DNA of 63,955 nt, filler included, from Reclinomonas americana ATCC 50394 (GCA_048213135.1; 6 parts of 5 records of this genome joined end to end with filler, not necessarily neighbours in it); one strand, 5' to 3'; shown: positions 2,016 through 63,444, counted from the whole stretch's first letter. Notes: a model not told the origin generated them from the letters alone. Made by a program: numbers and translations.

Positions 2016-4156
2016 TCAGTACAAGTCAGGCAGCTTCCACCACTGCGACGGGTCGTTGAGACGCATCTGGAACTCGATGCTGAGGCGGACGAGTTGTTAA
2101 CGCGACACACTTAAAGAGGACGTGCAATGGTAGTTGCCGAACACACCCCGACACCTTGTCCATGTCTTCGTCGGTGACCTTGTCGAGGATCTGCAGGGTG
2201 CCATGCAGATTGGCGTCGATGCGTCCTGGTACCACCGACTGCGAGAGCACCAACGATGAGTGGCACGGAACTGCAGGGCAGCTTGCGGAGATGCACACAC
2301 CTTGGGAAGCACGCTCGTGCCACGCTTCAGTCCCCACGCCTGTTATGCATGCGTGTGATTATCAGGTGGCGTGCTCATGTCAAGAAAGGAGGCACATACG
2401 CACCAGAGCAATTTGTGCCGGGCCAGTGTCGTACTTTTTGGCGAGCTCCAGCAGGATGGAGTCGTCGAGGACGTGACTCGGAGCCACCTTGGGTCTGCGC
2501 GCGTGGCGATTAGCAAAGCGGTGAGCGAATTCGTGAACAGCACGCCATCACACGCGACTTCATGTCGGGACTGCCACCCTGTTCCANNNNNNNNNNNNNN
2601 NNNNNNNNNNNNNNNNNNNNNNNNNNNNNNNNNNNNNNNNNNNNNNNNNNNNNNNNNNNNNNNNNNNNNNNNNNNNNNNNNNNNNNNNNNNNNNNNNNNN
2701 NNNNNNNNNNNNNNNNNNNNNNNNNNNNNNNNNNNNNNNNNNNNNNNNNNNNNNNNNNNNNNNNNNNNNNNNNNNNNNNNNNNNNNNNNNNNNNNNNNNN
2801 NNNNNNNNNNNNNNNNNNNNNNNNNNNNNNNNNNNNNNNNNNNNNNNNNNNNNNNNNNNNNNNNNNNNNNNNNNNNNNNNNNNNNNNNNNNNNNNNNNNN
2901 NNNNNNNNNNNNNNNNNNNNNNNNNNNNNNNNNNNNNNNNNNNNNNNNNNNNNNNNNNNNNNNNNNNNNNNNNNNNNNNNNNNNNNNNNNNNNNNNNNNN
3001 NNNNNNNNNNNNNNNNNNNNNNNNNNNNNNNNNNNNNNNNNNNNNNNNNNNNNNNNNNNNNNNNNNNNNNNNNNNNNNNNNNNNNNNNNNNNNNNNNNNN
3101 NNNNNNNNNNNNNNNNNNNNNNNNNNNNNNNNNNNNNNNNNNNNNNNNNNNNNNNNNNNNNNNNNNNNNNNNNNNNNNNNNNNNNNNNNNNNNNNNNNNN
3201 NNNNNNNNNNNNNNNNNNNNNNNNNNNNNNNNNNNNNNNNNNNNNNNNNNNNNNNNNNNNNNNNNNNNNNNNNNNNNNNNNNNNNNNNNNNNNNNNNNNN
3301 NNNNNNNNNNNNNNNNNNNNNNNNNNNNNNNNNNNNNNNNNNNNNNNNNNNNNNNNNNNNNNNNNNNNNNNNNNNNNNNNNNNNNNNNNNNNNNNNNGTC
3401 CACATCGATGCCCTTGCCATCCTGCGCATACGCACTCGATGTGAGAACGAATCGCGATGGCTATGTGCGCGACGCAGTCGACATTTGCTGCACCTCCCGC
3501 ATGGGAAACAGCACCGGGTTGTGAATGTCGCTGACAGTCGGCCAGTGTGCCAAGTCGGTGCCCGTCGGCAATCTTGCCAACCCGTAAAGGGTCAGCAGCC
3601 GAGCAAGATCGGCCACAAGAGACAGAAAGAGAGACACACCTGAACGCCGGATACAAGTGCACGAGCAGCAGATCCACATAGTCGACACGCAGGCGCTCGA
3701 GCGACCCCAACACCGCCTCGCGCACATGCTCCGGTCGCCGCACAGTGCTCCACAGCTTCGTAGTGATCCACACCTGTTCACGAGTCACCTTGCCGTCCTT
3801 CTCACCACCAAGGAACTCCTCCAGTGCCACTCCCACCTCCTGCTCGTTGCAGTAGATTTGCGCCTGCAGATCCTGATGTTAAAGATTCGCTTCTGCATTG
3901 CGCTCTTCTCCGCCCCCTCGTCACGCAACACAATCAATGTGGCGATACCCACTCTCCAGTGCACACCGCACTGCGCTCTCTGTCTCTCCACCAGTCTGCG
4001 ATTTCCATGTGCCTGCATGCAACAACAATGCACGCATTGTGAGAACGTGCACAGTGTGTGCGTGCGTGCGTGCGTGCAAGACAAAAAGAAGGCACCGTAG
4101 CCAATGCCCGGCATGCGAGCACCAGAGGCAAGCGTGAAGGTGTGATCGGCGTTCAT
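2016..4156 (-). CDS. Aldo-keto reductase (middle lost in N-gap)
   Basis: Spliced motifs MPGIGYGTW, GYRHIDCAQIYCNEQEVG, REQVWITTKLW, LERLRVDYVDLLLVH and C-terminal RIDANL...EDMDKVSGIEFQMR are typical of AKRs. Introns are GT-AG. Confidence 0.9.
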
Positions 4157-4203
4157 TGAGAGACAACAGAGAGGCTGTCCTGCAGTCACACTTCGTCTTT
4201 GAA

Positions 4204-5235
4204 ATGGCCGGGCGCAGTGCACTCGACCTGCTTGAGCTCGAAGACGATGAGGTGTGTCTCTGTGCATGCGCGTGCGTGCATTGTCTGCTCACTCTCTCTA
4301 TATAGCGTGAGCCAGCGACCAAGAGACAGCGCACTGCTCGTGAGGAGGACTACGATGACGAGGAGGATGAGATGGCGGATGATGAGGATGAGGATGAGGA
4401 AGAGGTGCTTTGCCTGCTCCATATGTAAGAGAGGCCGTGCATTTGTTGAACCACTGTGTGTGTGCGCAGGGTCGTGGTGCGGGAGGTGTCGATGATGAAG
4501 AGGACGACTTCCTCCCGAGTGCGCTTGGTCCGTCGCGCTCGTCACAGGCCTCGGCGAGCGACTCAACAGCAGCCGCAGGAGGCGGAGGAGGAGGTGCAAG
4601 GTCAGTGAACACTCACATTGCAGTCACTGCAGGTGACTGATTGCNNNNNNNNNNNNNNNNNNNNTGTGCTGTGCTGCTCAGTGGTGCTGGTGGGGGAGGG
4701 TCGGACTCTGGCTCCGGCTCCGAGGACGAGGAGGAGAAGCGGCGAGAGCGTGTGCGTCGTCGGCGAATGAGAAAGGAGGCGTCGCGAGTGGGAGATGCCA
4801 GTCGAGTGGCGGCCGAGGCGGCGCGCAAGGCGGCGGTGACCGAACGCAGTCGTCTGTTGTCGCTAATGGACGCGGAGCAGCAGGATCGATACGAGAGCTT
4901 CTACCAGTCCAAGTTCGACCGTGGCACGGTGCGGCAGCTGATTCAGGGGTCGTTGAACACCAAGTCCAAGCTCAGCAACACCGTGCTGGCCATTATCGGC
5001 GGCTGCTCCAAGGTGTTGGTGGGCGAGCTGATTGAGGAAGGTGCGGTGTGCTTGCTGCGTTGTTGGTCCTTGATCGTGCCGCTCAACACTTGTGTGTGTG
5101 TGTGCGTGTGCAGCACTGGCGGTGCAGGGCCGGTGGAATGCCGTGGGCCCCCTGGAACCGGCACACATTCGCGAGGCGATTCGACGGCTGCGGCGGAAAC
5201 CCAACTCGCCGTTTGCCAGCAAGTATGCGCATTGA
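4204..5235 (+). CDS. TAF11: TFIID subunit TAF11 (acidic N-terminus plus histone fold)
   Basis: Spliced EQQDRYESFYQSKF...IIGGCSKVLVGELIEE|ALAVQ...GPLEPAHIREAIRRL matches the TAF11 (TAFII28) histone-fold signature. Confidence 0.85.
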
Positions 5236-5348
5236 AAAACGAGGGACTCTCCGTCTCGTCATTCTTTCTTTCTTTTTGCATCTACACTTGAGAAGAAAAA
5301 ACAAGCCACACGAAGGAGAACGCGAGAACGGGGGGAACGGGAGACCGC

Positions 5349-8300
5349 TCACTCGCGCCCACCGCCGCCAATGCTCAGCACACCGGCAGCAATGAGCTTC
5401 TGCAACCGTCCCTGGACCACGGGGTTTGACAGATGCGTGCGCGCGGCCTGTGGGTCGGTCTGGATCTGATCCAGCACCTGCTTCATCGCGGGGTCGGTCA
5501 GGATGTTTTGGATCTCCGGATCCTCCTGTGCTCGTCTGCGAGTACATTTGTCAACAAACATGGCCACGCACGCCCACATGGAATGAAGTACACACCTCAC
5601 GCGCTCTGGATCTGGCTTGCCCTGGTTCATCGAAATGGCCGTCGAGACGCGCGCCAAGCCCTCCTGAGCCTCGGCATTTTCGGGNNNNNNNNNNNNNNNN
5701 NNNNNNNNNNNNNNNNNNNNNNNNNNNNNNNNNNNNNNNNNNNNNNNNNNNNNNNNNNNNNNNNNNNNNNNNNNNNNNNNNNNNNNNNNNNNNNNNNNNN
5801 NNNNNNNNNNNNNNNNNNNNNNNNNNNNNNNNNNNNNNNNNNNNNNNNNNNNNNNNNNNNNNNNNNNNNNNNNNNNNNNNNNNNNNNNNNNNNNNNNNNN
5901 NNNNNNNNNNNNNNNNNNNNNNNNNNNNNNNNNNNNNNNNNNNNNNNNNNNNNNNNNNNNNNNNNNNNNNNNNNNNNNNNNNNNNNNNNNNNNNNNNNNN
6001 NNNNNNNNNNNNNNNNNNNNNNNNNNNNNNNNNNNNNNNNNNNNNNNNNNNNNNNNNNNNNNNNNNNNNNNNNNNNNNNNNNNNNNNNNNNNNNNNNNNN
6101 NNNNNNNNNNNNNNNNNNNNNNNNNNNNNNNNNNNNNNNNNNNNNNNNNNNNNNNNNNNNNNNNNNNNNNNNNNNNNNNNNNNNNNNNNNNNNNNNNNNN
6201 NNNNNNNNNNNNNNNNNNNNNNNNNNNNNNNNNNNNNNNNNNNNNNNNNNNNNNNNNNNNNNNNNNNNNNNNNNNNNNNNNNNNNNNNNNNNNNNNNNNN
6301 NNNNNNNNNNNNNNNNNNNNNNNNNNNNNNNNNNNNNNNNNNNNNNNNNNNNNNNNNNNNNNNNNNNNNNNNNNNNNNNNNNNNNNNNNNNNNNNNNNNN
6401 NNNNNNNNNNNNNNNNNNNNNNNNNNNNNNNNNNNNNNNNNNNNNNNNNNNNNNNNNNNNNNNNNNNAATGTGAGCCACACTCGCAAGGGTGATCATGAA
6501 TGAAATGCAGCAAGCGTACCTCGGGGTACTTTTGCTCCTGGAAGAACTGGTTGCCCTTGGTGCGGTGCTCCATGCTCAGTGCCGGGTTCTGGTACGCCTC
6601 CTCCTTTCTCTTTCGCATGTCGCGCTCCAACTGCACACCTCCATACAAATGAGCTTCGCAAAAACAACACAGTAGACACAAAATAGAATAAGCGTACGCA
6701 ACAGCGGTCTTGCGGTTGAGCACTTCGCGATCGCGGTGCTCAATCAGACTCTGCTCGTAGGCCTTGACGGCGTCCTCGTCACGTCCAAGCTTGGCCAGCG
6801 CGTTGCCCATGCGGAAGTAGGCCCTGCCGCGGGAAAGAAAAGCCATGAGCTGATGACGATAGGCTCAGCAAAAACAAAATAAACGCAACTTGGCAATGAG
6901 CTTAAAGTCGGCGAGCACACTTCGGCCCTTCTGCACCGCCTCCTCGCACTCCAGAATGCACTTCTCGTAGTCCTCCATGCCAAAGTACGCCGACGCCGCA
7001 TTCAGACGGTACACGACATTCTCCGGGTCGAGGTCCGCGGCCTCACGGTAGAGTGCCAGCGCCGCCTCGAAGCTCTTTTGCTTGTACAGCTCGTTGCCGT
7101 CCTCCTTGAGCCTTTCCGCACGCTGGCACGCCACAAGTACCAGGTTAGCCCAAGCAATGGAAGAGAGTAAGAGTAAGAGAGAGCAAGAGACACACCTGTC
7201 GGCGATCGCGCTTCTCCAATTCCTCGGGTGACAAGTCCTCTGGCTCCGGCTCTGGTTCCGGCGCCTTGGCCGCCTCCTTCTGTTGATCAACAGTCGTTTC
7301 AGTATCAAAACGCACGACAGAGGTACGTGCACTTCACGAACCTTGGGAGGAGCACTGGACGACGACGAGGACGACGACGACGCACCGCCACCATTCGGCA
7401 TAGGCGGCTCATCGGCAAACATAAACTGGTCGCCAGCCATCAACGTGAGCACCGCCTGCAGGATACGCTGATCCGACATGTGCTGCTTGAGGTTGGAGGG
7501 ATCGCGCTGCACGTCCTCCAGCTTGCGCACAAAGTCCGGCTGCGCCATGAGATGCGCCAGACGCGGATTTGACGCAATCCTCTGCTTGAGATTCGGATCG
7601 GAGAAGATCGACGACAGTTCCGCCAGTGGATTGCCAGCCGGTCCCGGTCCGTTCGACAGACGCGCCAGTGAGTCACGCAGACCCGTCTGCATCGCAGCGT
7701 TGTCCGGGTCCAATTGCAGTCCGCGCTCATACGCCTCCTTTGCGTCCGCAATGCGCCCGAGTCCATACAGCGCATCGGCCTTACGATGCCATCCGCGTGC
7801 CCAATCCGGCTTCACCGAGGTCACATGATCAGCATCCACAAGTGCCTCCTCGTACCTGAATGATGATGATTGCGTCAGAGAGTGACATCACTTATCGTCC
7901 GGCCTCTCTTCCCCGCGCGCTCTGCTCACACACACTCTCTACATGCGCGTGTGCAGTACACGAGTGATGCCTCTCTCTGTGTGTGTACGCGTGCAAGAGT
8001 GTGCGTGCGTGCGTGTGTGCATGCGCAAACACGCACACACGCGTCACTCCCTTTTTTTGTGAGCACGCAACTTGTGCAGGTTGAGGTAAGAGGCAGCGCG
8101 ATTGGAGTAGAACACGTGGTTGCTGTTGTCGAGCTCAATGGCCTTGGAGAAGAGCTCAGCGGCCTCGGCGTACTGTTTCGCAGAGAAGGCCTCGTTGCCG
8201 CGTGCTTTGAAGTCGTCAGCAGACTGTGAGCAAAGAGAGAGGGGAAGAGTCAGTCAGAGGAATCCTCTGTCGACAAAGCCTCCATGTGCGTGCGCACCAT
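5349..8300 (-). CDS. STI1: Hsp70/Hsp90-organizing protein STI1/HOP
   Basis: TPR1 (KARGNEAFS...NHVFYSNRAA, KPDWARGWHRKA), DP1, TPR2A (KEDGNELYK), TPR2B (TKGNQFF) and DP2 (DPEIQNILTDPAMKQVL...IAAGVL). The first coding exon is the ATG alone (8298-8300). Part of the gene lies in an N-gap. Confidence 0.95.
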
Positions 8301-8360: not shown

Positions 8361-9532
8361 TCATTCATCGTCACCAAGCAGCTCGGCTTGCATGTCTTCC
8401 TCTTCTCCTTCCTCTCCTTCTTCTTCTTCCTCTTTTTCGATTACCGCGGCAGCCGCGGCGGGTTCCTGCGCATCGCCGCCCAGCATTGAACGATACAGCG
8501 GCTGCCATGTGTTGCACGACAAGTTGAGTGTGTAGGGGAAGTGGAGCGACGACGAAGAGCACGCAACTCGCACAGGACGGCCATTGCCACTGCCTGTCGA
8601 CGACCGATGGTGCTGACGCGACGATCCAAAGCCTCCGCCTCGATGCCACTTCCCGTCGCCATTCGCCGGCTCGGGCGAGAACAAGTCGTGTTTCCAGCGA
8701 CCGGCGGTGGCATCGGATCGCGCACGTGAGGAGCCCTCTGCGCTGCCGCGGTACGGGTCGAACCGCCCACCCGACAAGCGCTCTGCAGCAGCATAAGAAC
8801 ACACATTCACTTGGTCGCTGGTGTGTGCATTGTTTTAGAACCTCCACCGTACTGCCGACCGCCTCGCGACGCCATTGCCCCATCGCCAGGATACCGTCGC
8901 TGCTCACGCCGAGCACCCTCGCGCTCCATTTGCTGCATGCATACACGTCAGCTCTCACTCACTCACTCGACCAGCAGCACTCAACGAACCAGCGCAAAGA
9001 TCTCCTTTTGCGACGCGCCCATGGCCACGCGCTCCGCAATCTCCTCGTCGACCTGCTCACGCGCAGTCAACCAGCACGCACTTTGCCTGTACACCTACAG
9101 CACATACTCACAGAAGGCGACTTGCGTGTTGTCGACGAGCGTCCATCACTGCGTCGATGCCGGTACTCGTCGGGCAACGACGACGATCGCGGACGCCCTC
9201 TGTGCACACACACACACACACAGACGAGTGTTTGACACTATGTAGACCCCTTGCTCTCTCTCGCGCTGGAAACGCACTGGTGACGCGGTGGAGAAGGCGA
9301 GCGCGGATGACGATGCGGATACCGCCGCTGTCTACGGTCGAAATCGGGTGTGCTGGGCCCGTGTGCGTGACTGCGCGGGAGAGGAGGCGGGAGAGGTGGC
9401 GAGAGAGCACGTGACTCGTGGCGGTGATGATGGCGAGCAGGAGAGCTGCATGTGTGAGAGAAGGCGGACAAGTGAGTGCAAGCAGTGAGTGTGTGAGTCT
9501 GGGCATGTCCACCTGCGTCGTCGGTGGTCCAT
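8361..9532 (-). CDS. Low-complexity Arg/Pro/Gly-rich protein with a W-x-H-D motif (possibly RNA-associated)
   Basis: A frame-consistent five-exon model gives MDHRRRSSPARH...VDEEIAERVAMG...GGRFDPYR...GRWKHDLF and an acidic tail. Function is inferred only weakly. Confidence 0.5.
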
Positions 9533-9625: not shown

Positions 9626-11992
9626 TCATGCCTCGAAGGTGACGTTGAAGCTGCGCTTGACGAGGGAGCGATCGGGTGTGTAGTCGCCGGGTGCCACTGG
9701 TGCTCGGTTGCGCATCTCTCGTTCTCGTGGTGCGAAGCGGTCCTCCTGCGTTCATTGACACAAGGATTAGGCGAGGCAAGTTGCAATGGAACATTCGCTG
9801 GGGGGACGCAACTGTTGAGAGGAAGGTGTTGGGCTTGGTTGAGGAGACCTTGGGTATGGGTTGTGGCTCGTATGCGCCCGGTCCGGGTACAGCAGCTGCA
9901 CGGGAGTGAGAATGGCTGCGAGAGGGAGACAACTGTCGTGTCGCGGCGTACCCTTTGCCGAGTCCTTCGAGAAACGAGGTGCCGAGGCCGCGAATGCGTG
10001 ATTGTGTGTGAGTTCCCTGCGCGGCTTGGTGTCAAACGTGCCCGGCAGATCGTAGGCTCCCGGTGGTGGGGCCGCTGTGCGATCACCGCGCGTCAGCACA
10101 CAGCGCCAGACAACTCGGCACTCGAGACAAACACACAAACCATCTGGCTTGGCGGCAACCGGGTCGCGATGAGAGCGTGACGCGAATACAGCAGAGCGCT
10201 TGTCGCTTCGTCGCCGTGTGACTGGATCGATCTTGACAGGTGGGTCATACGAGGCCGGTCCCGGCTGCGTCACCACCTCGGCTGCAGGTCCTCGGAAGCG
10301 CGCTGTGGTCGACCCAAACACGCCAAAGCGACCCACCGCCTGTCGCGGTGCACTCATTGACATGCGAGGCTGCAGCAAGCACACGCCAAGGGTGAGCGCG
10401 GGATGGAAGGAGACAGCGAGAGACACCGACAACAACAAACCGCCATGCCATCCGTGTACTGTCCAGGTCCGGGAGCATCGCTGGGGCGATACACAAAACG
10501 TTGCGCAGCAGTGTCGAAGCCGGGGCGATTCTGTGACAACAGAAGAATGACATTGAGCGATGGCGGTGGGGGCGAAGAAGATGATGATGTGGACGGGGAC
10601 TGACCCTTGGTGGCGACAGGCCCGGAATGAGGTCGGCGTACGGCGCCATGTCCTTGGGCATCTTGATGGTGGTCGGCAGGTCGTACGCTCCCGGGCCGGG
10701 AATGTCGCGCACTTGTGAGCTGGCGCCCGGCAGGCGTTCCGAGTTGCTGCCAAAGTTCTGGAATGGTTGCGGCACAAACGAGCGGCGAATGGACGACTGA
10801 TAGTCGTAATCGCCTGGACCCGGCAGCTGCAAGCATCATCATGGCGACGTGGTGAGAGGGATGCAAAGAGAGGTGCAAGTCAGCCATCACACAGACGCAC
10901 CGCATTCTTCTGTCCCACCCAGTCGGTGCGCTTGGAGCCGGATGCAAACGCCGCGTGTGGACGATAGTTGACGGAAATGTTTTTCCGCAAATCCTTACTG
11001 GGATCGTATTCACCAGGGCCCGGCGTATGCGTCGCCACACCCGCCGTCTTGATCAGATCCGGCCGTGTGGTGGTCTTGGAAAAATCAGGCGCCGTTCGCG
11101 CATGCTTCACCGCATTCACCGCGTGCGCCGTATCATACTCGCCGGGTCCCACCGTGTCCACACCACGCCCTGCATGCCCCACCGTCGGCGGCTTCTGCAT
11201 CACCAGCTCACCACCCACACCTTCCTCGTAGCCATACGATTGCGATCGTGCGGGAATCGACGGTGCCGTGGCCACTGTGCGCGCACACGTGAGCACGTGT
11301 GGATCGACATGAGGAGTGGCTTGAGCAAGCGGCTGACCTTGCACCCAGTTGATCGCTGCACCGCCTGGTCTCCCTGCTCTCCCGCCTTGTGCGCTTGCCG
11401 TCGGCGCCGAGTGCGGCTTCTTCGGGTCGACCCACGGCTGCGACAAGTCATACGATCCCGGTCCTGCACAACAACCATGAGCCTCCTTCTTCCACTCTTT
11501 CTCTCACACACTTCTCTCTCTCTCTCTGCGCACCTGGTGTCCGCGACGGCTTGATCACATCGCGCGGCACCGCCGAGGAGAACACCGCCGAGGTCTGCAG
11601 ACCACTGCCACTTCCGCCCTTCTTCCCGCTCGCGTCAATCGTCAAATCGCGAGTGTACGCGCCCGGACCCGGAGTAAACGTGCTGCCCTCCATAAACCCA
11701 CGTCGTGTGGTGCTCGTGAACGGTGCCTGACTGAGAGAGAGAGAGTGAGTAGAAGATTGATTTCTCCTTTCCTTCTTTCTGCTCTTTCGCTTCTTCTTCT
11801 TCTTCTCGTGCTGTTGCTGCTTGTCTTGCTTCTGCTCGTGCTCCTCCTGCTCGTGCGTCTTCTCACTAAGAGTGAAGGAGTGAGACGCAACGCATGCTTC
11901 ACTTGATGATCCTTGGGCATCTCATAGGCGCCCGGACCAGGCGCGTGCACCTGTTGCGCATTGAACCGCTCAGAGCGCGTCGTGAACGCCAT
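9626..11992 (-). CDS. SHIPPO/ODF3-STPG2-like PGPG-repeat axonemal protein
   Basis: More than 10 PGPG(A/E/D/Q)Y repeats (PGPGAYE, PGPGEYD, PGPGDYD, PGPGQY), F-x-S-x-x-x-RF spacers and C-terminal KRSFNVTF. Confidence 0.85.
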
Positions 11993-13623: not shown

Positions 13624-14199
13624 CTACTTCTCGTCGAGATTGATGGAGGAGCCGAACTTGCCATACAGGACGGCCTTGAGTCGCGTGGTGGTGGCGCTAA
13701 TGGTCTCCACCTCAGCCTCCTTTCTCGTCAACTGAGACAACACACAATGAACGTTTTGGTGTGGGTGACAAGCGCGCACACACAAACACACGCAACGTCC
13801 TCCTTTAGTGAGGCGCCCAACTCGGTGAGCATGCTCTCTGCCTGATCCGAGGTCACCTTGACAAAGCCGTCGCCCATGGCAATCCTTGTGTGACAGTGTG
13901 TGTGTGAGCAACACTCAGGTTGTCTCTCTCACACACATGTGCGTACCTCACATCGTCGCACAGCATGGCCTCGTCCACTGCATTGTCGATCTTGGTGATC
14001 TCAGCCTGCACCGCAAGAGAGCGCTGTGAGGAGCGCGCGCGTGAGTGTGTGCAAGAGCGCGTGTATGTGTGACCTTCAGCGCATTGATCTCTCCATCCAG
14101 CTGCTTCAACCGCGTGGTCAACCGACCAAACGTGTTGATGTTGCGCTGATCCTCTGCGGTGACCTCTTGCGCCTGAGCCGGTGCCGTCGCCGTCGCCAT
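13624..14199 (-). CDS. PFDN4: Prefoldin subunit 4
   Basis: EVTAEDQRNINTFGRL...LKAVLYGKFGSSINLD, with three GT-AG introns. Confidence 0.93.
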
Positions 14200-14608: not shown

Positions 14609-14708
14609 NNNNNNNNNNNNNNNNNNNNNNNNNNNNNNNNNNNNNNNNNNNNTTAATTAATTAANNNNNNNNNNNNNNNNNNNNNNNNNNNNNNNNNNNN
14701 NNNNNNNN
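14609..14708. other. Artificial scaffold spacer (N44-TTAATTAATTAA-N44)
   Basis: The six-frame stop linker is at 14653-14664. Identical linkers lie at 43606-43617, 56397-56408, 58695-58706 and 62673-62684. Confidence 0.97.
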
Positions 14709-17649: not shown

Positions 17650-17672
17650 TAGTCAATTTACAATATCATTAA

Positions 17673-35867: not shown

Positions 35868-35875
35868 GTTGCGTA

Positions 35876-35925
<50 letters not shown>

Positions 35926-36348
35926 NNNNNNNNNNNNNNNNNNNNNNNNNNNNNNNNNNNNNNNNNNNNNNNNNNNNNNNNNNNNNNNNNNNNNNNNNNN
36001 NNNNNNNNNNNNNNNNNNNNNNNNNNNNNNNNNNNNNNNNNNNNNNNNNNNNNNNNNNNNNNNNNNNNNNNNNNNNNNNNNNNNNNNNNNNNNNNNNNNN
36101 NNNNNNNNNNNNNNNNNNNNNNNNNNNNNNNNNNNNNNNNNNNNNNNNNNNNNNNNNNNNNNNNNNNNNNNNNNNNNNNNNNNNNNNNNNNNNNNNNNNN
36201 NNNNNNNNNNNNNNNNNNNNNNNNNNNNNNNNNNNNNNNNNNNNNNNNNNNNNNNNNNNNNNNNNNNNNNNNNNNNNNNNNNNNNNNNNNNNNNNNNNNN
36301 NNNNNNNNNNNNNNNNNNNNNNNNNNNNNNNNNNNNNNNNNNNNNNNN

Positions 36349-43509: not shown

Positions 43510-44221
43510 GTTGCGTCTGTCTCACAGCGTCATTCGCTATCGTCGTGCTCACATAAGGCGTNNNNNNNNNNNNNNNNNNNNNNNNNNNNNNNNNNNNNNN
43601 NNNNNTTAATTAATTAANNNNNNNNNNNNNNNNNNNNNNNNNNNNNNNNNNNNNNNNNNNNCATCCATCATTCATCATCAATGCACGCACGCACAGTGTC
43701 CGTCACTCACCAAAGAACATACAAGGGATGACGGGGGCCGGCGGTTTCGAGAAGGAGGTGGCACAAAGGCAGAGAGAGAGAGAGCGGAACACTCACTCAC
43801 AGAACACTTGTTGCTCGGGGAGAAGGAGCACACAAACGCACGCGCGTCGAACTTAATTAACGACGCACCGCGGGGAGAGACAGAGAAGAGAAGAAGAACA
43901 CCAGTGTCTTCTCTCTGTTATTAATAAACGCTTTCTTCGTCACACACTATGCCAGTGTGTGTGTAGGAGAGAGCGGAACGGACAACAACTGTGACGCGTG
44001 TGCAATGTCACCACGCGCACACACGAAAAACACAAGAGGGAGGAGAGGGCACACAGAGGCGAGGAATGGAGCAGGTCTCGACAAGCTGCAGGGTATCACA
44101 CAGAGAGCAACAGACACACACACAAAGAGGTGGGGCTATTATTGGCTCAGAGACGCAAACAACGATAAAGGTAATAGCTTCTGTAAACCTCGTCTACATA
44201 AAAACATCGCACACCGTTTTT

Positions 44222-46684: not shown

Positions 46685-46822
46685 TCAGCGCACAACGTGT
46701 GAGTGAGCAGCAGACAAAGGCACGCACGCAACACTGTGATTGCGTTCTATTCGTTTGTTGTGTTGTGTGGCTGTCCTATGCCGCTGTCCTTCTTCGTTCT
46801 TTGTTGTGTGTGTGCAGTGAGC

Positions 46823-48402: not shown

Positions 48403-50835
48403 ATGGCCGCTGAGGATCAATTCCGCCAGTCTATGGCTGGTGTGCTGGCATCGTCGCCCGTCGACACTGCTGGCGCCGCCATGCTCCAAGTTGCGTGTGT
48501 GTGTGTGTGTTCGCGCGCGGGCAATCGCCCCCCTCCTCTCTCNNNNNNNNNNNNNNNNNNNNTCCGTCCTCCTCTCCTCCCTCCTCTCTCTCTCTCTCTC
48601 TCTCTCCACCTCTTTCCCGTCACTGCGTGTGCGTGTCTGCGTCTTCACTTTTGTTCAGTTGTCTCGAGATGTCGCACCATCTCTCGCTCTCTTGCTCTCT
48701 TCTGTGCGCCACGCACCTCGTGAGTTGCTCCCCACCCTCTGTCCCCGTGCCTTTCCTTCCCGCCCGCCATCTGCTGCCTTGCGAGGAGAGAGATTCCTTT
48801 CACTTGTTGCTGCTGGTGCTGACGTGTTTGTTTTCCGGTCAGACGTGGACCACGTCAACGTGGAGGTTTGTCTTGGTGTCTCTGCGCTGCTCATTGTGTG
48901 TTTCCGAGATCTCACTTCAACTTTGACCAGGAATACGGTTTGACCACGCAAAAGATTTTCCGCAATGCCTCCGTGCCTGTGCTCTACGAGCAGGCGTTGC
49001 AGCGCGAAAAGGTGCGTAAAGACAGGCAGCCGCTCTGCGTCTGTCTATACTCATCCCCCCCGTTCTGTTCGCAGGGCTCCTACATGACCAGCACTGGTGC
49101 TCTGATCACCCGTTCGGGTGCGAAGACTGGCCGCTCGCCCAAGGACAAGCGCATTGTCGAGGAGCCGTCGACCAAGGAGGACGTGTGGTGGGGCCCCGTC
49201 AACATCAAGCTCGACGAGGCGTCGTTTTTGATGTTGCGTTTCTTTTCATCTGCAAGGGTGTGCATCGACAGCTGCATGCATGCTGACCTGTGGTATTGCA
49301 GTAACCGCGAGCGCGCCATTGATTACCTCAATACGCGCGACCAGTTGTACGTGTTTGACGGCTACGCCGGGTGGGATCCCGTGTACCGCATCAAGGTGTG
49401 TTCCCTATATTTGTTGCATCCTCTTTCTTCCCGCTCCTCCCCTTCCCTTCCTCACCCCATCGCCCAGATCCGTGTCGTCTGCGAGCGTGCCTACCACGCC
49501 CTGTTCATGCACGACATGCTGATCCGCCCGACTCGTGAGGAGCTTGCCGATTTTGGTGAGCCCGACTACATCATCTACAACGCCGGCGCCTTCCCCGCCA
49601 ACCGCTTCACCAAGGGCATGACGTCGTCGACATCGGTGGCCATTCATCTCGGCCGCCGTGAGATGGTCATTCTCGGCACGCTGTACGCCGGCGAGATGAA
49701 GAAGGGTGTGTTGACGATTATGATGTACCTCATGGCCAAGTTGGACGTGTTGCCGCTGCACTCGTCAGCCAACGAAGGTGTGTAATTGTGCTGTGTTGCT
49801 TTCACTTTCTCTTCCCACTCATTGCGATCACCGCCCTCGTGCAGGCCCCGACGGCACCACCACTCTCTTCTTTGGTCTGTCGGGCACCGGCAAGACCACA
49901 CTGAGTGCCGATCCGCACCGCAAGCTCATTGGCGACGATGAGCACGTGTGGACCGACGGTGGCATCTTCAACATTGAGGGCGGCTGCTACGCCAAGTGTG
50001 TGGACCTCACGCACGAGAAGGAGCCGGAGATTTTCGATGCGCTGCGCTTTGGTGCTGTGCTGGAGGTTTGTCGCTCACGCGCAACATCATCATCACGTGT
50101 GCGGAGTGTATTTGTTCCTCATCCGCGCGCACACAGAATGTGGTCTTTGACGAGCACACTCGCCTGGTCGACTACCACGACATCTCCATCACAGAGAACA
50201 CGCGTGCTGCGTACCCGCTGGAGCACATCCCCAACTGCAAGATCCCCGCCATTGGCCAGCACCCGAACAACGTCATTCTGCTCACCTGCGACGCTTTCGG
50301 CGTGTTGCCGCCGGTGTCGAAGCTGACGACGGCGCAGGCCATGTACCACTTCATCAGTGGCTACACTGCCAAGGTGGCCGGCACTGAGGTCGGCATCACC
50401 GAGCCGGAGGCCACGTTCTCTGCTTGCTTTGGCGAGCCGTTCTTGGTGTGGCACCCGACCAAGTACGCCGAGATGTTGGCGCAAAAGTTGGTCACATACG
50501 GCGCCCAAGCGTGGCTGCTGAACACGGGCTGGGTCGGAGGCTCGTACGGCGTCGGACGCCGTTGCTCGCTCAAGTACACGCGCGCCATGGTCGATGCGAT
50601 TCACTCGGGCGAGTTGGCCAACCAGGAGACGGTGGAGAACGCCATCTTTGGTCTGCACGTGCCGAAGCACTGCCCGAATGTGCCCGACGAGATCCTGCAG
50701 CCGCAGATGATGTGGAGGGACGTGACGGCGTACGACGCCACCCTCACTCGTCTGGCTGTGCGCTTCATCGAGAATTTCAAGAAGTACGAGGATCGCGCCT
50801 CGGACGAGATTCGTGCCGCCGGCCCGCGCTTGTGA
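48403..50835 (+). CDS. PCK1: Phosphoenolpyruvate carboxykinase (ATP-dependent)
   Basis: [69 protein letters not shown] and FSACFG. About 9 exons. Confidence 0.98.
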
Positions 50836-51439: not shown

Positions 51440-54400
51440 TTACGCGGTACCAAACGCCACCCACGAGAAGTCCGCCTGAGTCTGGTGGTTGCCGCTGTTG
51501 TAGATGCCGCCGCCGCTGCTGTCCTCAGCACCACCCTCGGCAGTGAAGCCAGTGGGTGCCACCGACGCAATAATCACGTCAACAGTCGCACCCCATGCAG
51601 ACGACGTGCCGTCGGCAGCCAGAGTGGCATTGTCGGAGCTGTCGACCTGCACACCTCGCAGGAACGTCAGCACCTGCGGAGGCGCGTTGAAGGCGTTGCT
51701 GAAGGTGATGGACGTCGTGCCGCCAGTCAGCGTGCCCTCGCCCACCAACATCTGGTAGCCGCCATTGACGCCAGTGGGGAACGACATCCACGAGTAGGCA
51801 AGACGGGCAATGCGTGAGTCGAGCAGCGCGCTCGCCTCGTGCGAGAACTTCTCCGTCGTGATCGAGGCCAGTGGCAGAGTCGCAGTGAAGCGCACGTCAC
51901 GGCCGCGGCCAGTGTACAAGTGGCGCAGACCGTGAGCAATCACCGGCGGCGAGTTGTACAGCGACGGCAGCTGGCTGTGGCGCTCCGTCTTGGTCTGAGT
52001 GCGCGTGCCGGCACCAGTAGACGGCACACGCCACCAGTCGGCACGGCCCTGCGACGAGTACAGCAGAGTACCCGTGTTGGAGCGAGCCAGATCGCGCGGC
52101 GTGAACTGCGCCAAGATGCTGATGCTGAACGACGTGATCTGAGTGTCGCTGTAGGTCACGCAGCGAGTGGTGATCGACCGCGTGTCGAAGCGCTCAGCAG
52201 AGCAGTACAGGCGACCATCCGAGTTGTTGGCCAACAGGAACGAGTTCATGCCAACCAGAATCGCCGGGCGGCGCGCAAACTCCTCCGAGAAAGTGGTGGT
52301 GGTGGTGAACACACGAGTGCCGACGCCATCATCAAAGTTGGCCGCCTGCCACGCCGCAGCGTCGCTCATGTGGTCGATCGAGAGCGATTGCACGTCTGCA
52401 CAAAAACAACGAAAAAGAACAGTGTGAGAATCATCGTCGTCACCACAAAAACGACAGAGTAATAACGCAACGAGAGCCAACGCTGATAATGCCGCGCGGC
52501 ACCTCCGCCCACACCGACGTGTTGACCTTGCGGTAGCACACCTTGTACGAGCCGCCAGTGGCAATGGTGGTGGGAATCACGGCCTTGCCGCAGAAGCCCG
52601 ACTCGTCGCACTCCGACATGGCCGTGGCACCGACCGTCACACTGCTGGCATTGCCGGGGCCGCACACCAGGCCCACCTTGGCAATCGAGAACAGCGTGCA
52701 CTCGGTGAAGAAGTCACCAAGCACAGTCAGCGAGAACGGCGCGCCAGCAGTCGCCACATTCGGGAAGCTGAGCGTGGCAGCCGGCTGCGTCGAGGCTGCA
52801 AACGAGAGGACAGCAAAAAGGTGGTCACACAAACTTGCCTTCTCCCGCAAACAATCGCAAACAACACATCACTCACCAGTCACAGTGATCGTCGCAAGCG
52901 ACGTGTACGCCTGGATGCGGTTAAAGCGACCGCACAGGTTGTACGAGCCAGTCGCCAGCAGATCTGAGCACGTCGGGTTGAGCGACGACACCGGGTTGGT
53001 GCGCGTGTCCACACGGAGGAACAGCGCATTGGCGAGGCCGCTAGTGACCGCGCGGACACCCATGTTGCCAGAAACCGGCGGGTTCGGGCCATTGCCGCAA
53101 GCGCCAGAAACAATGTAGAACTGGAAGTTGGACGGCGTCTGGCTGAGCAGAGACAGATTCGCGCCCGAGATGGTCACCACAGCATTGGCAACGCCCGACG
53201 GCAGCGACGTCGGCGACACTTGCGGGGTCACTGCAATGGTTTTCACACACAAATGTCAGCGCACACGCAACACACAACACAGAGAGGAGGAAAGAAGGGA
53301 AGAAGAAGAAACGCAACAAATGTTGATCGAGACATTCAGCACCGGGCTCCACACCGGAGTACCGACAGTGGTGTCGGGCGACTGGCACAGGTACTGGTTG
53401 CTCGCCGCAGTGCTCTGCGTCAGCGTGGCAAACGAGATCAGCGCGTGCGTCGCGGTCGGCGTCACAGTGGCAGTGATGTTGGCATTGCGGTTGGCGCAGT
53501 TCTTGTCCGAGGCAACAGCAAACGCCTGGTTGGCACCAGTGTAGAAGCCACCGCGCACGTCAAGAGTCTGGCCAGGGCCAGCCTTGCCAGCAATCAGCGG
53601 CACAACAATCGGGTACCACACGCACGGCGCCTCCACCGTCAGCGTCGCACCAGTCGGGCGGTAGCGAACCGGCGCCGTCTGGTCCAGCGGGTTCGAACAG
53701 ATGAGGTACGTGCCAGGCGCAATACCAGTGGTGCGATCCGCCCACGTGAGGATGGCCGAGGTGGCACCATTCACAGTCACCGTGTGTTGGGCGAGCTGTT
53801 GTTGAGACGTTGTGTAGTTGAGTACGCAAGAAAACAAAAAACAAAAATCACTGAAAGCAATAGCAAGCAGCACAAACCTCCGGAACGTTGCTAGTCGGCG
53901 CCACAGTAGTGGTAGTCGCGCACGAGCCGTCAGTGGCCTGAGCGTTGAACACAGCGTACTGGTAGCCGACAGCGTCGTTGAAGTGCGTGCCAGCCAGCGT
54001 AATGGTCTTGCGACGGCCAGAGCCGAGCTCAATGTTCTCAGGCAGCGACGCGTCGGGCACATCGTCAGAGTCAATTCCGCACACGCCGCGCTGAATCGAC
54101 TTGTTGGCGTTGATGCATGAGCCAGCCACACGCATGGTCGCGCCAGTCCAAGCAGGGTTGCTGCCGCCATTCGACATGCAGAGGAAGTACACGCCAGGCG
54201 GAGTCAGCGCGCTGGTGAGTAGCGAGTACTGGCGGGTGCCAGCGCCGGCCTTGGCAATGCTGATCGTCGTGTCGACAGACTGCGGGACACTGCCGTAGCA
54301 GTTGGCCGAGATGGCGGCCGTATACTGAATCGACGACGACGGCGCAGCCTCGGAGAAGATGCCACCGGCAGCCGCAGTCACCGTCACCGGCGTCGAGCCC

Positions 54401-56134: not shown

Positions 56135-56452
56135 GATGGATGGTGGTGGTGGTGGTGGTGGAGTGCGAAACAGAGCAAACAACTAAACAAACAAACAAAA
56201 AACTGCGGAGGGGGGGGGGGGATGCAGAGCGCAGCAGGGTGTGAGCTCCAAAGGGCAACGTGTATGTGTGTGTGTGTTAACGACAACAACCGCACAGCGC
56301 AACACACCTGCTTGTAGGAGACGCGGGCCACGAGGTAGTTGCCGACGCTCCGNNNNNNNNNNNNNNNNNNNNNNNNNNNNNNNNNNNNNNNNNNNNTTAA
56401 TTAATTAANNNNNNNNNNNNNNNNNNNNNNNNNNNNNNNNNNNNNNNNNNNN

Positions 56453-58650
56453 ATGGAAAAGTGAAAAAGAGCGGATGCCGCAGGCAGGCCACAAGCAGAA
56501 ACGCTCACCCTCTTTCTCGAAGACTCCATCCATGATCACGACTTGTCGCCAGTACAGCGGTGCGGCCATCATCCGGCGAGCCAGTTGCTGCGGGTCTTCT
56601 GCGCGAGTGTGGGCAAGGTGTGATGAACAGAAGCCATCATGTGATCGCACTCTCATCAAAACGCAACGTTGCAACTGTCGCAGGTCGTCATCGATTGCGG
56701 CAGCCATGCAGGCGGCTTCAGGGTTGATTACGTGTTCTGACGATTGTTCTCGCCGCTGCCGTGCTATTGTGAGAGGGGAACATTGCGCGCGACTCTCCAC
56801 CGATCTCACCCGCGAGTGTTCGCCATTCAGTGTGTGCATCAAACGATGCAGGATGACGCGGGTGCGAAACAGCGCAGAGCGCAAGTCACTCGAGAAATGC
56901 TGCATGAGCGTCACCGTGTCGACCGTGTCGTCGGGTGGCGTCGGCTGCTGCAGGCTTCCCGACGACGGCTCCAAAATCTGATTCAAGTCAACAGATGCAC
57001 ACTCACACCATCGAGGGACAGCGTTCCACACAGATCTCTCACCGACAAGACAATGTCACGCTGCTGCGCCACCTGGCCGTCACCGACATCGATGGTGGTG
57101 CGGAACACAACGCGGGGAATTGTATGTGGCGTCCTCCTGCCCACATCAGGCAAATGCTGCTTTAGTCGCCTGCCTCGCAGCTGACGAATGCCACCACTCA
57201 CCGCTCGACAATCAGTTGCACCGGGCACGCCGTAGCGCCACCCAACAACACATCGCCGAGCACCATTGGTTTCGGCAGTCGCACAACAATGTTCTCCACA
57301 AACGCAATCNNNNNNNNNNNNNNNNNNNNNNNNNNNNNNNNNNNNNNNNNNNNNNNNNNNNNNNNNNNNNNNNNNNNNNNNNNNNNNNNNNNNNNNNNNN
57401 NNNNNNNNNNNNNNNNNNNNNNNNNNNNNNNNNNNNNNNNNNNNNNNNNNNNNNNNNNNNNNNNNNNNNNNNNNNNNNNNNNNNNNNNNNNNNNNNNNNN
57501 NNNNNNNNNNNNNNNNNNNNNNNNNNNNNNNNNNNNNNNNNNNNNNNNNNNNNNNNNNNNNNNNNNNNNNNNNNNNNNNNNNNNNNNNNNNNNNNNNNNN
57601 NNNNNNNNNNNNNNNNNNNNNNNNNNNNNNNNNNNNNNNNNNNNNNNNNNNNNNNNNNNNNNNNNNNNNNNNNNNNNNNNNNNNNNNNNNNNNNNNNNNN
57701 NNNNNNNNNNNNNNNNNNNNNNNNNNNNNNNNNNNNNNNNNNNNNNNNNNNNNNNNNNNNNNNNNNNNNNNNNNNNNNNNNNNNNNNNNNNNNNNNNNNN
57801 NNNNNNNNNNNNNNNNNNNNNNNNNNNNNNNNNNNNNNNNNNNNNNNNNNNNNNNNNNNNNNNNNNNNNNNNNNNNNNNNNNNNNNNNNNNNNNNNNNNN
57901 NNNNNNNNNNNNNNNNNNNNNNNNNNNNNNNNNNNNNNNNNNNNNNNNNNNNNNNNNNNNNNNNNNNNNNNNNNNNNNNNNNNNNNNNNNNNNNNNNNNN
58001 NNNNNNNNNNNNNNNNNNNNNNNNNNNNNNNNNNNNNNNNNNNNNNNNNNNNNNNNNNNNNNNNNNNNNNNNNNNNNNNNNNNNNNNNNNNNNNNNNNTG
58101 CTGCGTGATGACGGTGCCGTTCACTCGCAACGCCGTGTGCGAAGGTGGCTGCCACAATGGAAACAGTGTAAGCAAGAGCCACCGACTACCGAGGCGAGAA
58201 CAAGGCATGTTACCGTGACGGGCGACAATGGCGACAGTCCCTGCGGCAGCACGTTGAGCACGCTGCGTGTCGACACGGGATGTCGTGCGGCGATCACTCC
58301 ACGAATGGCCGCTAACCACTCGCTCATGCTGTGCTCCGAGTCAAGCGACACGCTGAGTGACTTGTTGGCGCCAACCACCGTCACAATGAACGCTGACGAT
58401 ATTAATGATGATGATGATGAGATCACAAGAAATAGTTCAGGCACAAGGCTGACGACAGCGGCGCACGTTTTCTGGTCGACTGCTCCCGCGCCACATCGCG
58501 AGAGACTTGCGAATCACGTCGCAAGAGCACGACGTTCAGCGGGCCTCGCTCGACAGAGTGCGCAGCGGACTTGTCGGCAAAGTAGAACACCGCCTGCGGT
58601 GTGAGTAATATGTATCGCTTCTTCCACGACTTGACACGCGAGCCTGTATC
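56453..58650 (-). CDS. PH-domain-containing protein fragments (two contigs)
   Basis: VIMDGVFEKEG lies at the 56453 end. VFYFADK...AFIVTV...SEHSMSEWLAAIRGVI lies in 58099-58650. Confidence 0.5.
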
Positions 58651-58750
58651 NNNNNNNNNNNNNNNNNNNNNNNNNNNNNNNNNNNNNNNNNNNNTTAATT
58701 AATTAANNNNNNNNNNNNNNNNNNNNNNNNNNNNNNNNNNNNNNNNNNNN

Positions 58751-60362: not shown

Positions 60363-61231
60363 TCAACGCTTCGGCCACTGCGACGGCGACGGCTGGGAGG
60401 CCGCTCCGCCACCACCTCCGCTGACAAACGTCGCCGGGGCCACACGACTCTTGGTGTTGCGAATGCGACCCGGGTTGCCGGCACGTTGCTGTTGGGAGAG
60501 AGAGAAAATACATCAGAGACCTTCTCGCAAGAAATAATGCACGATGGACGCAACTCGTTGGGTTTGCTCGTCGAGAGCCGGGAACGGATTGAACACTCGC
60601 TGGTGGGTGCTGCTGACCGGCGGCGGCGGAGCCATGGCCCCGACACCCATGGCCAGTGACGGGTTGGCGGCTGCCGACTCGGCATAGTCGAATGCGCTCG
60701 ACGCCGAACCACCACTGCTGGCGCTGCTGCTGCGCTTGCTCTTGCCGCGGCGACTGCTTCGCTTCTCTTGACGCCGCGGTCCAGAGCCGGGCGACGAGGG
60801 AGGCAGCATCTGTCCAGCACCACCACTGCCGCCAGCTGCAGCGCTGCCAGCAGCAGCGCCTGCCGCGACCGACGGACCACTGGCGCCAGAAGCTGCTGCA
60901 GCGGCGGCAGCGGCAGCAGCAGCAGCGTCCGACGGTTGCTGTTGCGGATTGAACTCGCTTCCTGAGACGCGAGAAAAACGTCAGCGAAACAGTGGGTAGC
61001 CACAGCAGTGGCAAGAAACAGAGAGACGCAACGAGATCCGTACGGCCCACTGTCGCCGGCGGTGCGCTCGGCGTCTTTCAGCCACCCGACGCGTTGCAAG
61101 AACTCCTTGACGTCGCCCGTGGCGGCCGTGCTGACCTCTTCCACTTCCGGTTTGCGTGAACGCTTGCGCTTCGTGTCGTCGACCTCGGCGTCTTCTGCCT
61201 GGTCGCTCGACTGCATCTCGTGCTTCCGACG
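60363..61231 (-). CDS. C-terminal fragment resembling the tail of exosome nuclease RRP6/EXOSC10
   Basis: Basic/low-complexity tail with AFDY, FNPF and terminal WPKR. Recognised only from short motifs; no catalytic domain is visible. Confidence 0.4.
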
Positions 61232-62330: not shown

Positions 62331-62405
62331 CGCCACACACGCACACCAAAGAAAACGCGCAATTTATGTGTGCAAATTCGTTTGTTTGCTTACACACTCA
62401 CACAA

Positions 62406-62628
62406 TGGACGAGCGGTTGTTGGCGGCACTGGCGGCGCAGCATGGCATGGGCGGTGCTGAGGTGCGCATGCTGTCTCTCTCACATACAGAGAGAGATGCG
62501 TGTGTGTGTGTTTGTTTGCTGACACACGCACAATGTCGCGCAGGAGGGCCCTCTGGTGGAGTTCCGCGCGGGCACGCTGCACTTGAACAGTGGCATGGTG
62601 ACGGCAGACAAGCGGAAAGGCATGGTTG
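62406..62628 (+). CDS. RPN13: Rpn13/ADRM1 N-terminal exons
   Basis: MDERLL...|EGPLVEFRAGTLHLNSGMVTADKRKGMV matches the start of the Pru domain (LVEFRAG...VT.DKRKG). Confidence 0.85.
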
Positions 62629-62728
62629 NNNNNNNNNNNNNNNNNNNNNNNNNNNNNNNNNNNNNNNNNNNNTTAATTAATTAANNNNNNNNNNNNNNNN
62701 NNNNNNNNNNNNNNNNNNNNNNNNNNNN

Positions 62729-63444
62729 ACACCGTCAACAATATGAGGACAAGGAGAAGAGTGATGACTTGCGCGTGCCAACGCAACGTTCTCGTCAATC
62801 AAGTGCAGGCAACCGTCATTGGGGACGAATGCCGTCACCTTCTTGCCGTTCTTGATGAGCTGCACACGCACGCACTTACGAATGGCAGAGTTCGGCTGCT
62901 TGGCCTCAATGCCGACTGCACAATAGCGAATGAACATGAGCCCAAAGAGACAAAGCGTTGGGTGAGAGAGAGCACACACGCACCCTTCTCGACGACGATG
63001 CCCTTGGCGTGGGACGAGCCTGCGCGCATCACAAGCAAAATCAGTCTCTCACACAAACTATGCCTGCTCCCTCAAAGACTCAATCAAAAGTGCACCTCCG
63101 AACGGGTTGGCCTATCAAGAAGGAGCACAACAGTGAGCAACCACGCACAGTCACACTCTGACACTCTCTGTTGGCACACACCTTCAGGGCAGTGCCAAAG
63201 TGAGCCTTCTTGTAGGTCTTGTCGGCTGCACACAGAAAGTGAGTCACTCTGGAACCTCATCACAGCTGCTCTCTCACAGACACGCACCCCAGCGGTTCAG
63301 CTGACGAGTCAGCTGTTCTCACACACACGCACAAGGAGGCGCAAACGAGTGAGCGACATGACGCACTTGAGCAAAGACAGGCACTCACACACAAACCTTC
63401 AGCTTGCGACCAGCGTTCACACCACGAGGCTTGTGCGATCCCAT
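62729..63444 (-). CDS. RPS23: 40S ribosomal protein S23 (uS12), 3'-truncated
   Basis: Spliced [93 protein letters not shown]. Confidence 0.97.

Follow-up and report, generated by a model that had tools for sequence, protein, structure and literature searches.

GTTGCGT as a probable second form of 5′ splice site in short introns of Reclinomonas americana

Introduction

Human genes are said to contain 5′ splice sites read in a shifted register, as described by Roca and Krainer in 2009. The validated non-canonical registers together are estimated at 1.5% of human 5′ splice sites (Tan et al. 2016, PMC4856993). In the slid register, as set out in the part of that paper drawn on here, the first intron G lies opposite C9 of U1 and the U at +3 opposite A7, and a GUUAAGU-like example pairs well with standard U1 (−6.5 kcal/mol). 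An atypical donor consensus, GTGCGTG, has been described for the introns of Ostreococcus lucimarinus outside chromosome 2 (Irimia and Roy 2008, PMC2483917). Here, we analysed a stretch of 63,955 bases from Reclinomonas americana ATCC 50394 (the window, with positions counted from its first base), in which a previous sequence-only reading had listed 29 introns beginning with the heptamer GTTGCGT. The motif was enriched in the window, strand-specific, located at the starts of predicted introns and tied to the base at −1, and the 3′ signals of these introns were like those of ordinary introns. Judging from the sequence, we consider it probable (approximately 0.6) that GTTGCGT is a genuine, abundant second 5′ splice-site form of ordinary GT-AG introns, handled by the same spliceosome, in which the recognised word is slid by one base.

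Results

Enrichment of the heptamer at intron starts

The window (23 runs of N, approximately 55% G+C, eukaryotic nuclear) contained 38 copies of GTTGCGT on the two strands, compared with 15.19 ± 3.37 in 100 dinucleotide shuffles, none of which reached 38. At 29 of the 29 listed first nucleotides, the heptamer was present on the strand assigned to it. Introns were predicted with a purpose-written dynamic-programming gene finder, which permitted partial genes at N gaps and scored codon usage (trained on Pfam-supported stretches first, then on the gene finder's own exons), intron length, branch motif and acceptor. A donor-agnostic run, in which only GT (or GC with a penalty) was demanded at the intron start, predicted 115 introns. 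GTTGCGT was the commonest heptamer at their starts, with 13 introns against 0.5 expected, and it begins 0.48% of the 7983 GT dinucleotides (binomial p 2e-14); all 13 sites were among the 29. The enrichment over background that the sequence-only reading had proposed to look for was thus found both in the window and at the donors. Even the earliest run, which used no donor, branch or length information and was noisy (80 introns, many of 200–300 nt), had GTTGCGT as its top heptamer (5 introns).

Placement relative to predicted genes was assessed with genes whose coding sequence was 300 bases or longer and a 300-base margin. The 38 copies comprised 29 in sense, none in antisense only, 5 where genes were predicted on both strands and 4 near no gene. 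The absence of antisense copies among the 29 that could be assigned was an observation in its own right; composition alone predicts several, and sense strands may therefore avoid the reverse-complement word.

Two donor classes and the last exon base

A donor matrix was added later and covered intron positions only; exon positions were never scored. In the run that gave the best set of introns, scores for the GTT class came from the ordinary matrix moved by one base, a separate GTT-class matrix having been dropped after a false call at 24267. This slid-matrix run predicted 141 introns, comprising 104 with ordinary and 37 (26%) with GTT-type donors, and 23 of the latter (16% of all, approximately one intron in six) had the strict GTTGCGT. 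The excess of the heptamer over expectation (approximately 22) matched the number of predicted donors (23). Among the ordinary donors, the leading hexamers were GTGCGT (21), GTGTGT (16), GTTTGT (11) and GTGAGT (7), the same four that had been named before, and GTAAGT was absent. Position +4 of the ordinary donors was C or T in 88/104 and A in 10, and 15/104 had a base other than G at +5. The GTT-type donors were GTTGCGT (23), GTTTCGT (3), GTTGAGT, GTTGCGC and GTTGTGC (2 each) and five others found once each, with C at +5 in 31/37 and G at +4 in 32/37.

The two classes differed in the base that precedes the intron. Ordinary donors followed an exonic G in 72/104 cases and GTT-type donors in 2/37 (Fisher p 2.9e-12, with exon positions outside the donor score). 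Seen from the exon, 72 of the 74 donors after a G were ordinary, and 35 of the 67 after another base were GTT-type. The dependence on exon context claimed in the sequence-only reading was therefore recovered when the 141 predicted donors were split by their −1 base, as it had suggested. The same split appeared in the donor-agnostic run, with a G at −1 in 0/13 GTTGCGT donors compared with 30/36 GTNNGT donors. For the 29 listed copies, the −1 base was T in 10, C in 9, A in 8 and G in 2, the last two being 43510 and 45681, exactly the pair that had been singled out.

The word itself was narrowly defined. GTTGCGT (38 copies in the window, 15.6 expected from composition) supplied 23 predicted donors, compared with none for GTAGCGT, GTCGCGT and GTGGCGT together (39 copies, 38.1 expected); only T was accepted at +3, since 0/39 of these GT[ACG]GCGT copies were donors. 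GTTGTGT (19 copies, 14.2 expected) and GTTTTGT (8 copies, 6.0 expected) likewise provided no predicted donor, whereas their unslid counterparts GGTGTGT (34 copies, 14.5 expected) and GGTTTGT (14 copies, 6.1 expected) provided 12 and 9, respectively. Over exon positions −3 to −1 of the GTT class, the log-likelihood was −152.3 for the slid consensus, −184.1 for the unslid consensus and −156.6 for the background.

Junctions supported by homologues

Seven GTTGCGT junctions (49233, 3929, 6702, 6889, 8071, 19138 and 25900) were free of gaps in alignments with homologues. In the gene for ATP-dependent PEPCK, the reading frame is open right through the intron at 49233..49301 (+, 69 nt), and homologues lack exactly 23 codons (69 nt) there; this gap was seen in 4/4 homologues chosen among the 120 matches listed, and the junction was gap-free against PDB 1ii2. 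The intron of the aldo-keto reductase (AKR) gene at 3864..3929 (−, 66 nt) was predicted to join HIDC|AQIY, which aligned without a gap to HIDS-AHLY of AKR1C3 and was gap-free against PDB aldo-keto reductases. An alternative GT at 3931 was rejected, as with an AG acceptor it cannot yield this junction. Three junctions on the minus strand lay in the STI1/HOP gene, which was aligned with 3 homologues of 108. The intron at 6631..6702 (72 nt, also predicted in the donor-agnostic run) matched a 24-codon gap in each of P0149 and P0174. The one at 6824..6889 (66 nt, ADFKLIAK|AYFRMGNAL) matched a 22-codon gap in 3/3 homologues. The unusually long one at 7856..8071 (216 nt, LNLHK|YEEAL) left the 30-residue SNR..KPDW spacing as in P0147 and P0174.

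The predicted product of a calcium-channel gene was aligned with 7 homologues of 26. Its GTTGCGT intron at 19076..19138 (−, 63 nt) gave ANFS|TFG..STG, gap-free against 7/7 homologues, and the one at 25826..25900 (−, 75 nt) preserved a 22-residue spacing that was the same in 5/7. The earlier claim that conserved residues pin such junctions thus held for PEPCK, AKR and the channel. Three variant donors of the channel gene, all on the minus strand, were also supported by homologues. The predicted GTTTCGT intron at 18903..18967 (65 nt) retained the C-x-N-x-L-x-N-C-G spacing of P0002, one of the seven homologues. The GTTGAGT intron at 19767..19839 (73 nt) follows a 132-nt exon (19840-19971; tblastn with P0016 and P0019), which a rejected 279-nt 'intron' had concealed. 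The GTTGAGC intron at 24155..24225 (71 nt) restored 13–14 residues of the S4 helix; the rival donor at 24267, which removes 13 of them, was rejected as false. The donors at 19839 and 24225 were both recovered in the slid-matrix run.

The same alignments would accommodate a cut one base later, with the G exonic and the intron running from TTGCGT to one base beyond the AG. Both classes would then share register and exonic G, and homology is indifferent to the choice because a one-base slide leaves the frame intact and alters one residue at the most: 49233 would have M in place of I, and the residues at 3929, 6889 and 8071, whose next exon base is G, would stay the same. Such introns would, however, begin with TT and have a variable end, as the base after the AG was G in 5/23 GTTGCGT introns and a C stood before the AG in 33/35 GTT-type introns; moreover, homologues carry I or V at 49233, as the GT-AG reading gives. 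We consider a later cut very improbable.

A similarly slim chance attaches to the proposal that the heptamers are not donors but chance occurrences, coding or regulatory motifs, or artefacts of the gene models. It draws on the known errors in those models and on the fact that donor status was predicted from sequence. Against it stand the seven junctions pinned by homologues, the p of 2e-14 in the donor-agnostic run, the 0 antisense copies, and the agreement between the excess of approximately 22 copies and the 23 predicted donors.

The 3′ side of both classes

Introns of the window were very short (median approximately 70 nt), with a CTCAC/CTGAC-like motif approximately 20 nt before a CAG acceptor. 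The 3′ sides were compared on introns of 45–120 nt, which covered 99/104 ordinary and 35/37 GTT-type introns. The branch motif CT[CG]A[CT], to which the model gave a bonus, was found in 75/99 ordinary and 23/35 GTT-type introns (p 0.27), and the median distance from branch to acceptor was 20 and 19, respectively. Position −3 of the acceptor was C in 84/99 ordinary and 33/35 GTT-type introns. Median intron length (71 vs 68) and G+C (0.525 vs 0.524) were also alike. All 37 GTT-type introns began with GT and ended with AG, as imposed by the model. The classes were mixed within genes, with 32 ordinary and 8 GTT-type introns in the channel gene.

U12-type introns carry the donor word RTATCCTT and the branch word TCCTTAAC. 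An assignment of the GTTGCGT introns to this type was rejected: their donor word is GTTGCGT instead, and their branch motifs are CTCAC/CTGAC as in ordinary introns. An origin of the GTTGCGT introns from a mobile, introner-like element that carries its own 5′ end with each copy would explain why the exact heptamer is common to the copies and why exon context is indifferent. The introns showed no likeness past the heptamer: 12/231 pairs of GTTGCGT intron bodies shared an 8-mer (computed on 22 introns, with the 216-nt intron omitted from the 23) compared with 434/4851 ordinary pairs, and positions +8 to +20 were without consensus. An introner origin is accordingly extremely improbable.

Pairing to U1

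Duplexes with the U1 5′ end were computed from nearest-neighbour energies in any register, with pseudouridine and U1 proteins ignored, and 600 GT sites within the same genes served as decoys. For the canonical 5′ end as printed in PMC4856993 (standard sequence, ACUUACCUG), the mean energies were −5.40 kcal/mol for ordinary donors, −1.49 kcal/mol for GTT-type donors and −2.67 kcal/mol for decoys; the area under the curve (AUC) against decoys was 0.774 and 0.324 for the two classes. Ordinary donors paired in the normal register in 80/104 cases. With canonical U1 assumed, the best duplex of GTT-type donors was in the slid register in 17/37 cases and in the normal register in 3/37. Since the duplexes of the GTT-type were weaker than those of decoys, human-style shifted pairing to standard U1 appears not to explain the class. 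The divergent or duplicated U1/U6 snRNAs proposed in the sequence-only reading would be compatible with this poor pairing.

Standard U1 might alternatively read these sites in the normal register, with one U at +2/+3 bulged or with mismatches, the −1 effect then being compensation between exon and intron. Validated examples of bulged registers exist among human sites (Tan et al. 2016, PMC4856993), and the share of GTGCGT donors with a non-G at −1 (7/21) was somewhat higher than that of the other four main hexamers (7/38). In a bulged duplex, however, the −1 base would still lie opposite C9 and G should remain favoured, which was seen in 2/37, and a bulge at +3 should allow any base, while 0/39 GT[ACG]GCGT copies were used; the best duplexes, too, were in the normal register far less often (3/37) than in the slid one (17/37). 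The near absence of G at −1, the restriction of +3 to T, and exon positions −3 to −1 that fit a slid consensus better than an unslid one all favour a slid register over a bulge, which we regard as distinctly unlikely.

In the duplex model, the data would be easier to explain if the site were read by something other than the textbook U1 5′ end, or by two readers. One such reader could be a diverged or second U1 complementary to GUUGCGU, in which case the heptamer would match that reader perfectly and would not be shifted at all. Canonical U1 would face a mismatch or wobble at the C at +5 (31/37) and the G at +4 (32/37) of GTT-type donors, and ordinary donors also favoured C/T at +4 (88/104) and included no GTAAGT. 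A trial 5′ end complementary to GUUGCGU gave means of −10.05 kcal/mol for GTT-type donors, −5.72 for ordinary donors and −4.86 for decoys; the AUC for the GTT-type rose to 0.906 from the 0.324 of the canonical end. The trial ends are complements of the motif, so this good fit is circular and proves nothing; the variant was also a poorer match to ordinary donors (AUC 0.617), and a single RNA would therefore not suffice for the two classes. GC-rich algae, moreover, use GTGCGT alongside standard U1. For the GTGCGTG donors of Ostreococcus, Irimia and Roy (PMC2483917), in the part of their paper drawn on here, raised a change in small nuclear RNA (snRNA) as worth exploring and thought a single unchanged spliceosome likelier. 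A scan of the window with Rfam returned 0 snRNA matches at the gathering score. Taken together, a diverged or second U1 of this kind appears unlikely, yet is to be taken seriously.

Further GTTGCGT introns and candidates

With the donor matrix in use, 21 of the 29 listed sites were predicted donors, 13 of which had already been called in the donor-agnostic run. Besides the homology-pinned introns, those called in both runs were at 13732..13796 (−, 65 nt) in an unnamed gene, 26703..26770 (−, 68 nt) in the channel gene, where a variable loop left the junction unpinned, 40190..40255 (+, 66 nt) in a leucine-rich-repeat gene, 44563..44627 (−, 65 nt), 52396..52471 (−, 76 nt) and 53231..53317 (−, 87 nt) in an H-type lectin gene, and 60489..60554 (−, 66 nt), whose flanking exon has no PDB homologue. 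Further predicted introns were located at 9746..9812 (−, 67 nt) in a SHIPPO-repeat gene, not pinned by homology, 17394..17464 (+, 71 nt) in an E2F-like gene, 31916..31969 (+, 54 nt), 32144..32199 (+, 56 nt), 45616..45681 (−, 66 nt), which follows an exonic G, 45839..45910 (−, 72 nt) and 60962..61032 (−, 71 nt), for whose flanking exon there was likewise no PDB homologue.

Four listed sites (8567, 11891, 32900 and 56667) were not predicted, and a manual look found for each a frame-keeping acceptor and coding on both sides, with weak to fair scores. The candidate at 8502..8567 (−, 66 nt) belongs to the closing part of an unnamed gene located upstream of STI1 and is in phase 0, with both frames open and a weak coding score. 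In the SHIPPO-repeat gene, the candidate at 11731..11891 (−, 161 nt) would link two PGPGAY-repeat exons in phase 2. The candidate at 32828..32900 (−, 73 nt) is in phase 1, with a good upstream coding score and the downstream frame TEYLFACASREERAEWLRAL; the model took 32923/32814 instead. The candidate at 56599..56667 (−, 69 nt) follows a short first exon starting with ATG and is in phase 1 with open frames and weak scores. This first exon has 13 codons (56668-56707).

At four other listed sites, a gap of N begins 52–59 bases downstream, so the intron cannot be closed. The candidate donor of an ankyrin-repeat gene (35868..35925, +) has an Ank match in its upstream frame and is followed by the gap 35926-36348. 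For the candidate donor of a protein-kinase gene (43510..43561, +), the Pkinase match stops at residue 123 of the frame 43141-43560, the codon before 43510, and the gap starts at 43562. The candidate at 62729..62787 (−) meets the gap 62685-62728, and the predicted partial gene 63759-62788 ends exactly there. These three had been named as running into gaps, correctly; the fourth, unnamed until now, is the candidate donor upstream of PEPCK (48490..48542, +), which follows ATG CTC CAA and has a 20-N gap 53 nt downstream.

Nine copies were outside the list of 29. Two were predicted donors, both only with modelled donors: one in the E2F-like gene (15765..15829, +, 65 nt), with an unclear branch motif, and one in a WD40 gene (29773..29853, −, 81 nt), for which the donor-agnostic run took 29848. 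Two more were candidates, 21537 by eye and a putative intron of the 5′ untranslated region at 46664..46732 (−, 69 nt), with a branch motif, an AG at offset 69 and a predicted ATG at 46663. The remaining 5 were non-donors. The copies at 53271 (−) and 17518 (+) lie inside the predicted introns 53317-53231 and 17476-17531, respectively, and are unused as donors.

Genes of the window

Pfam searches of long open frames named an aldo-keto reductase, TAF11, STI1/HOP, a SHIPPO-repeat protein, an E2F-like factor, a four-domain calcium/sodium-type channel, F-box, WD40, ankyrin and leucine-rich-repeat proteins, RbfA, a protein kinase, Spt4, ATP-dependent PEPCK, an H-type lectin protein and Rpn13. The best identities in protein searches were 75% for PEPCK, 44% for STI1 and 28% for the channel, and the protein collection held no close relative. 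A metagenome scan with an STI1 exon yielded a single weak locus (L001; 44% identity over 49 residues).

The channel gene (17510-27475, −) is extremely intron-dense, with at least 40 introns of approximately 55–110 nt in 10 kb. Two of its stretches were not settled by the model, including 21353-21628, which holds the donor-like GTTGCGT at 21537. Four of its junctions on the minus strand aligned without gaps and had donors lacking G at +5/+6, namely 26638 (GTCTCT), 23766 (GTATCC), 20843 (GTTTTT) and 21035 (GTTACT). Approximately one in ten donors of the predicted set fitted neither class.

Several genes seem to have an intron directly behind the start codon or a few codons further on. The ATG of STI1 (8298-8300, −) is directly followed by a GTGCGC donor at 8297, and PEPCK may begin with ATG CTC CAA (48481-48489, +) followed by GTTGCGT. 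For the gene upstream of STI1, the frame ends at a stop (8361-8366, −) approximately 60 bases ahead of the STI1 start on the same strand, which is very tight for genes bearing untranslated regions. Five gaps share a layout of 44 N, 12 real bases and 44 N (14609-14708, 43562-43661, 56353-56452, 58651-58750 and 62629-62728), which looks like an artefact of assembly or masking rather than biology.

Discussion

A one-base offset is, from the sequence, the best description of the GTT class. The recognised heptamer would be G-N-T-G-C-G-T, a pattern common to GTTGCGT and to GGTGCGT, the commonest ordinary donor together with its exonic G. The exon of an ordinary intron would end with the initial G of this word, and the cut would fall between positions one and two (G|GTGCGT). 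In the GTT form, that G would instead open the intron (|GTTGCGT), which moves GCGT away from the cut by one base. The GTTGCGT form would be used when the exon cannot provide the G, and the cut would be placed before whichever GT the word contains. The reader of the word may be a U1 5′ end pairing one base out of register. The nearly fixed C at +5, together with the poor binding of canonical U1, suggests that this reader is unlike the textbook U1 5′ end or is aided by another factor. Of the interpretation offered in the sequence-only reading, the real, abundant and context-dependent donor class stands as far as sequence and homology go, whereas a general shifted repertoire of donors and shifted pairing to standard U1 as its explanation were not supported.

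Several observations weigh against a slid word read by one spliceosome. All junctions were inferred, the cut positions resting on the GT-AG rule, reading frames and homology, and the gene models contain errors that homology exposed (the false donor 24267 and two long 'introns' hiding exons). Eight of the 29 listed donors were unconfirmed, four being bound by gaps and four being candidates from the manual look. One 3′ scheme was modelled for both classes, so part of their 3′ likeness was imposed. GTTGTGT and GTTTTGT were never donors though GGTGTGT and GGTTTGT are, so sliding the whole repertoire by one base does not reproduce the class; correspondingly, GCGT was present in 23/37 GTT-type donors compared with 21/89 ordinary donors with G at +5 (p 7e-5). 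On the exon side, the slid fit exceeded the background by just 4 log units, and the strict heptamer showed no preference for A at −1, so this side backs 'no G' over a true slid consensus. Finally, canonical U1 was predicted to bind GTT-type donors more weakly than decoy GT sites.

A more specific version of the slid word, that of a lineage with a re-tuned U1 or a second paralogue in which G/C replace two pseudouridines and possibly A replaces C8, is tentative and, in our estimation, rather doubtful. If it were true, GUUGCGU would be a perfect seven-base match one base off-register, and ordinary donors would be imperfect matches needing the exonic G. Such a U1 would be a rare departure from an almost universally conserved 5′ end, combined with a lineage-wide second donor class.

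Off-register reading of 5′ splice sites, a rare exception in man, would here be a main rule for approximately one intron in six, and GTTGCGT with its variants would cover about half of the introns after exons not ending in G. Gene finders trained on one donor matrix are expected to miss or misplace such introns here and in relatives. The class would offer a test of co-evolution between the U1 5′ end and splice sites, and a natural system for studying what sets the cut site if U1 and U6 make their contacts one base further off. Among the papers listed in literature searches, none treated GTTGCGT or GUUGCGU as a donor class and none was relevant to GTGCGT and U1, which is weak evidence that the class is unpublished.

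Like U12-type introns, introns of the GTT class form a second set marked by a rigid word at the 5′ end and share their genes with ordinary introns. The class differs in its donor word and in 3′ sides like those of ordinary introns, and its share is 16–26% compared with approximately 0.36% in man (PMC4856993). With Ostreococcus lucimarinus, the window shares GTGCGT as the preferred ordinary donor, short introns and a CTGAC-like branch motif (PMC2483917). O. lucimarinus is intron-poor with near-uniform signals, and an offset GTT class is not mentioned in the part of that paper drawn on here, whereas the window is very intron-dense (at least 40 introns in the channel gene) and its ordinary donors are varied. 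The human shifted-register sites are also GT-AG, have the consensus one base on, replace the exonic G by the first intron G and carry U at +3. In contrast to the 1.5% of human sites estimated in the part of Tan et al. (PMC4856993) drawn on here, GTT-type donors began 37/141 predicted introns and 35/67 of those after a non-G. Unlike the human GUUAAGU-like sites of the same source, GUUGCGU is predicted to pair with canonical U1 at −1.5 kcal/mol, under the level of decoys, and its class consists almost of one fixed heptamer.

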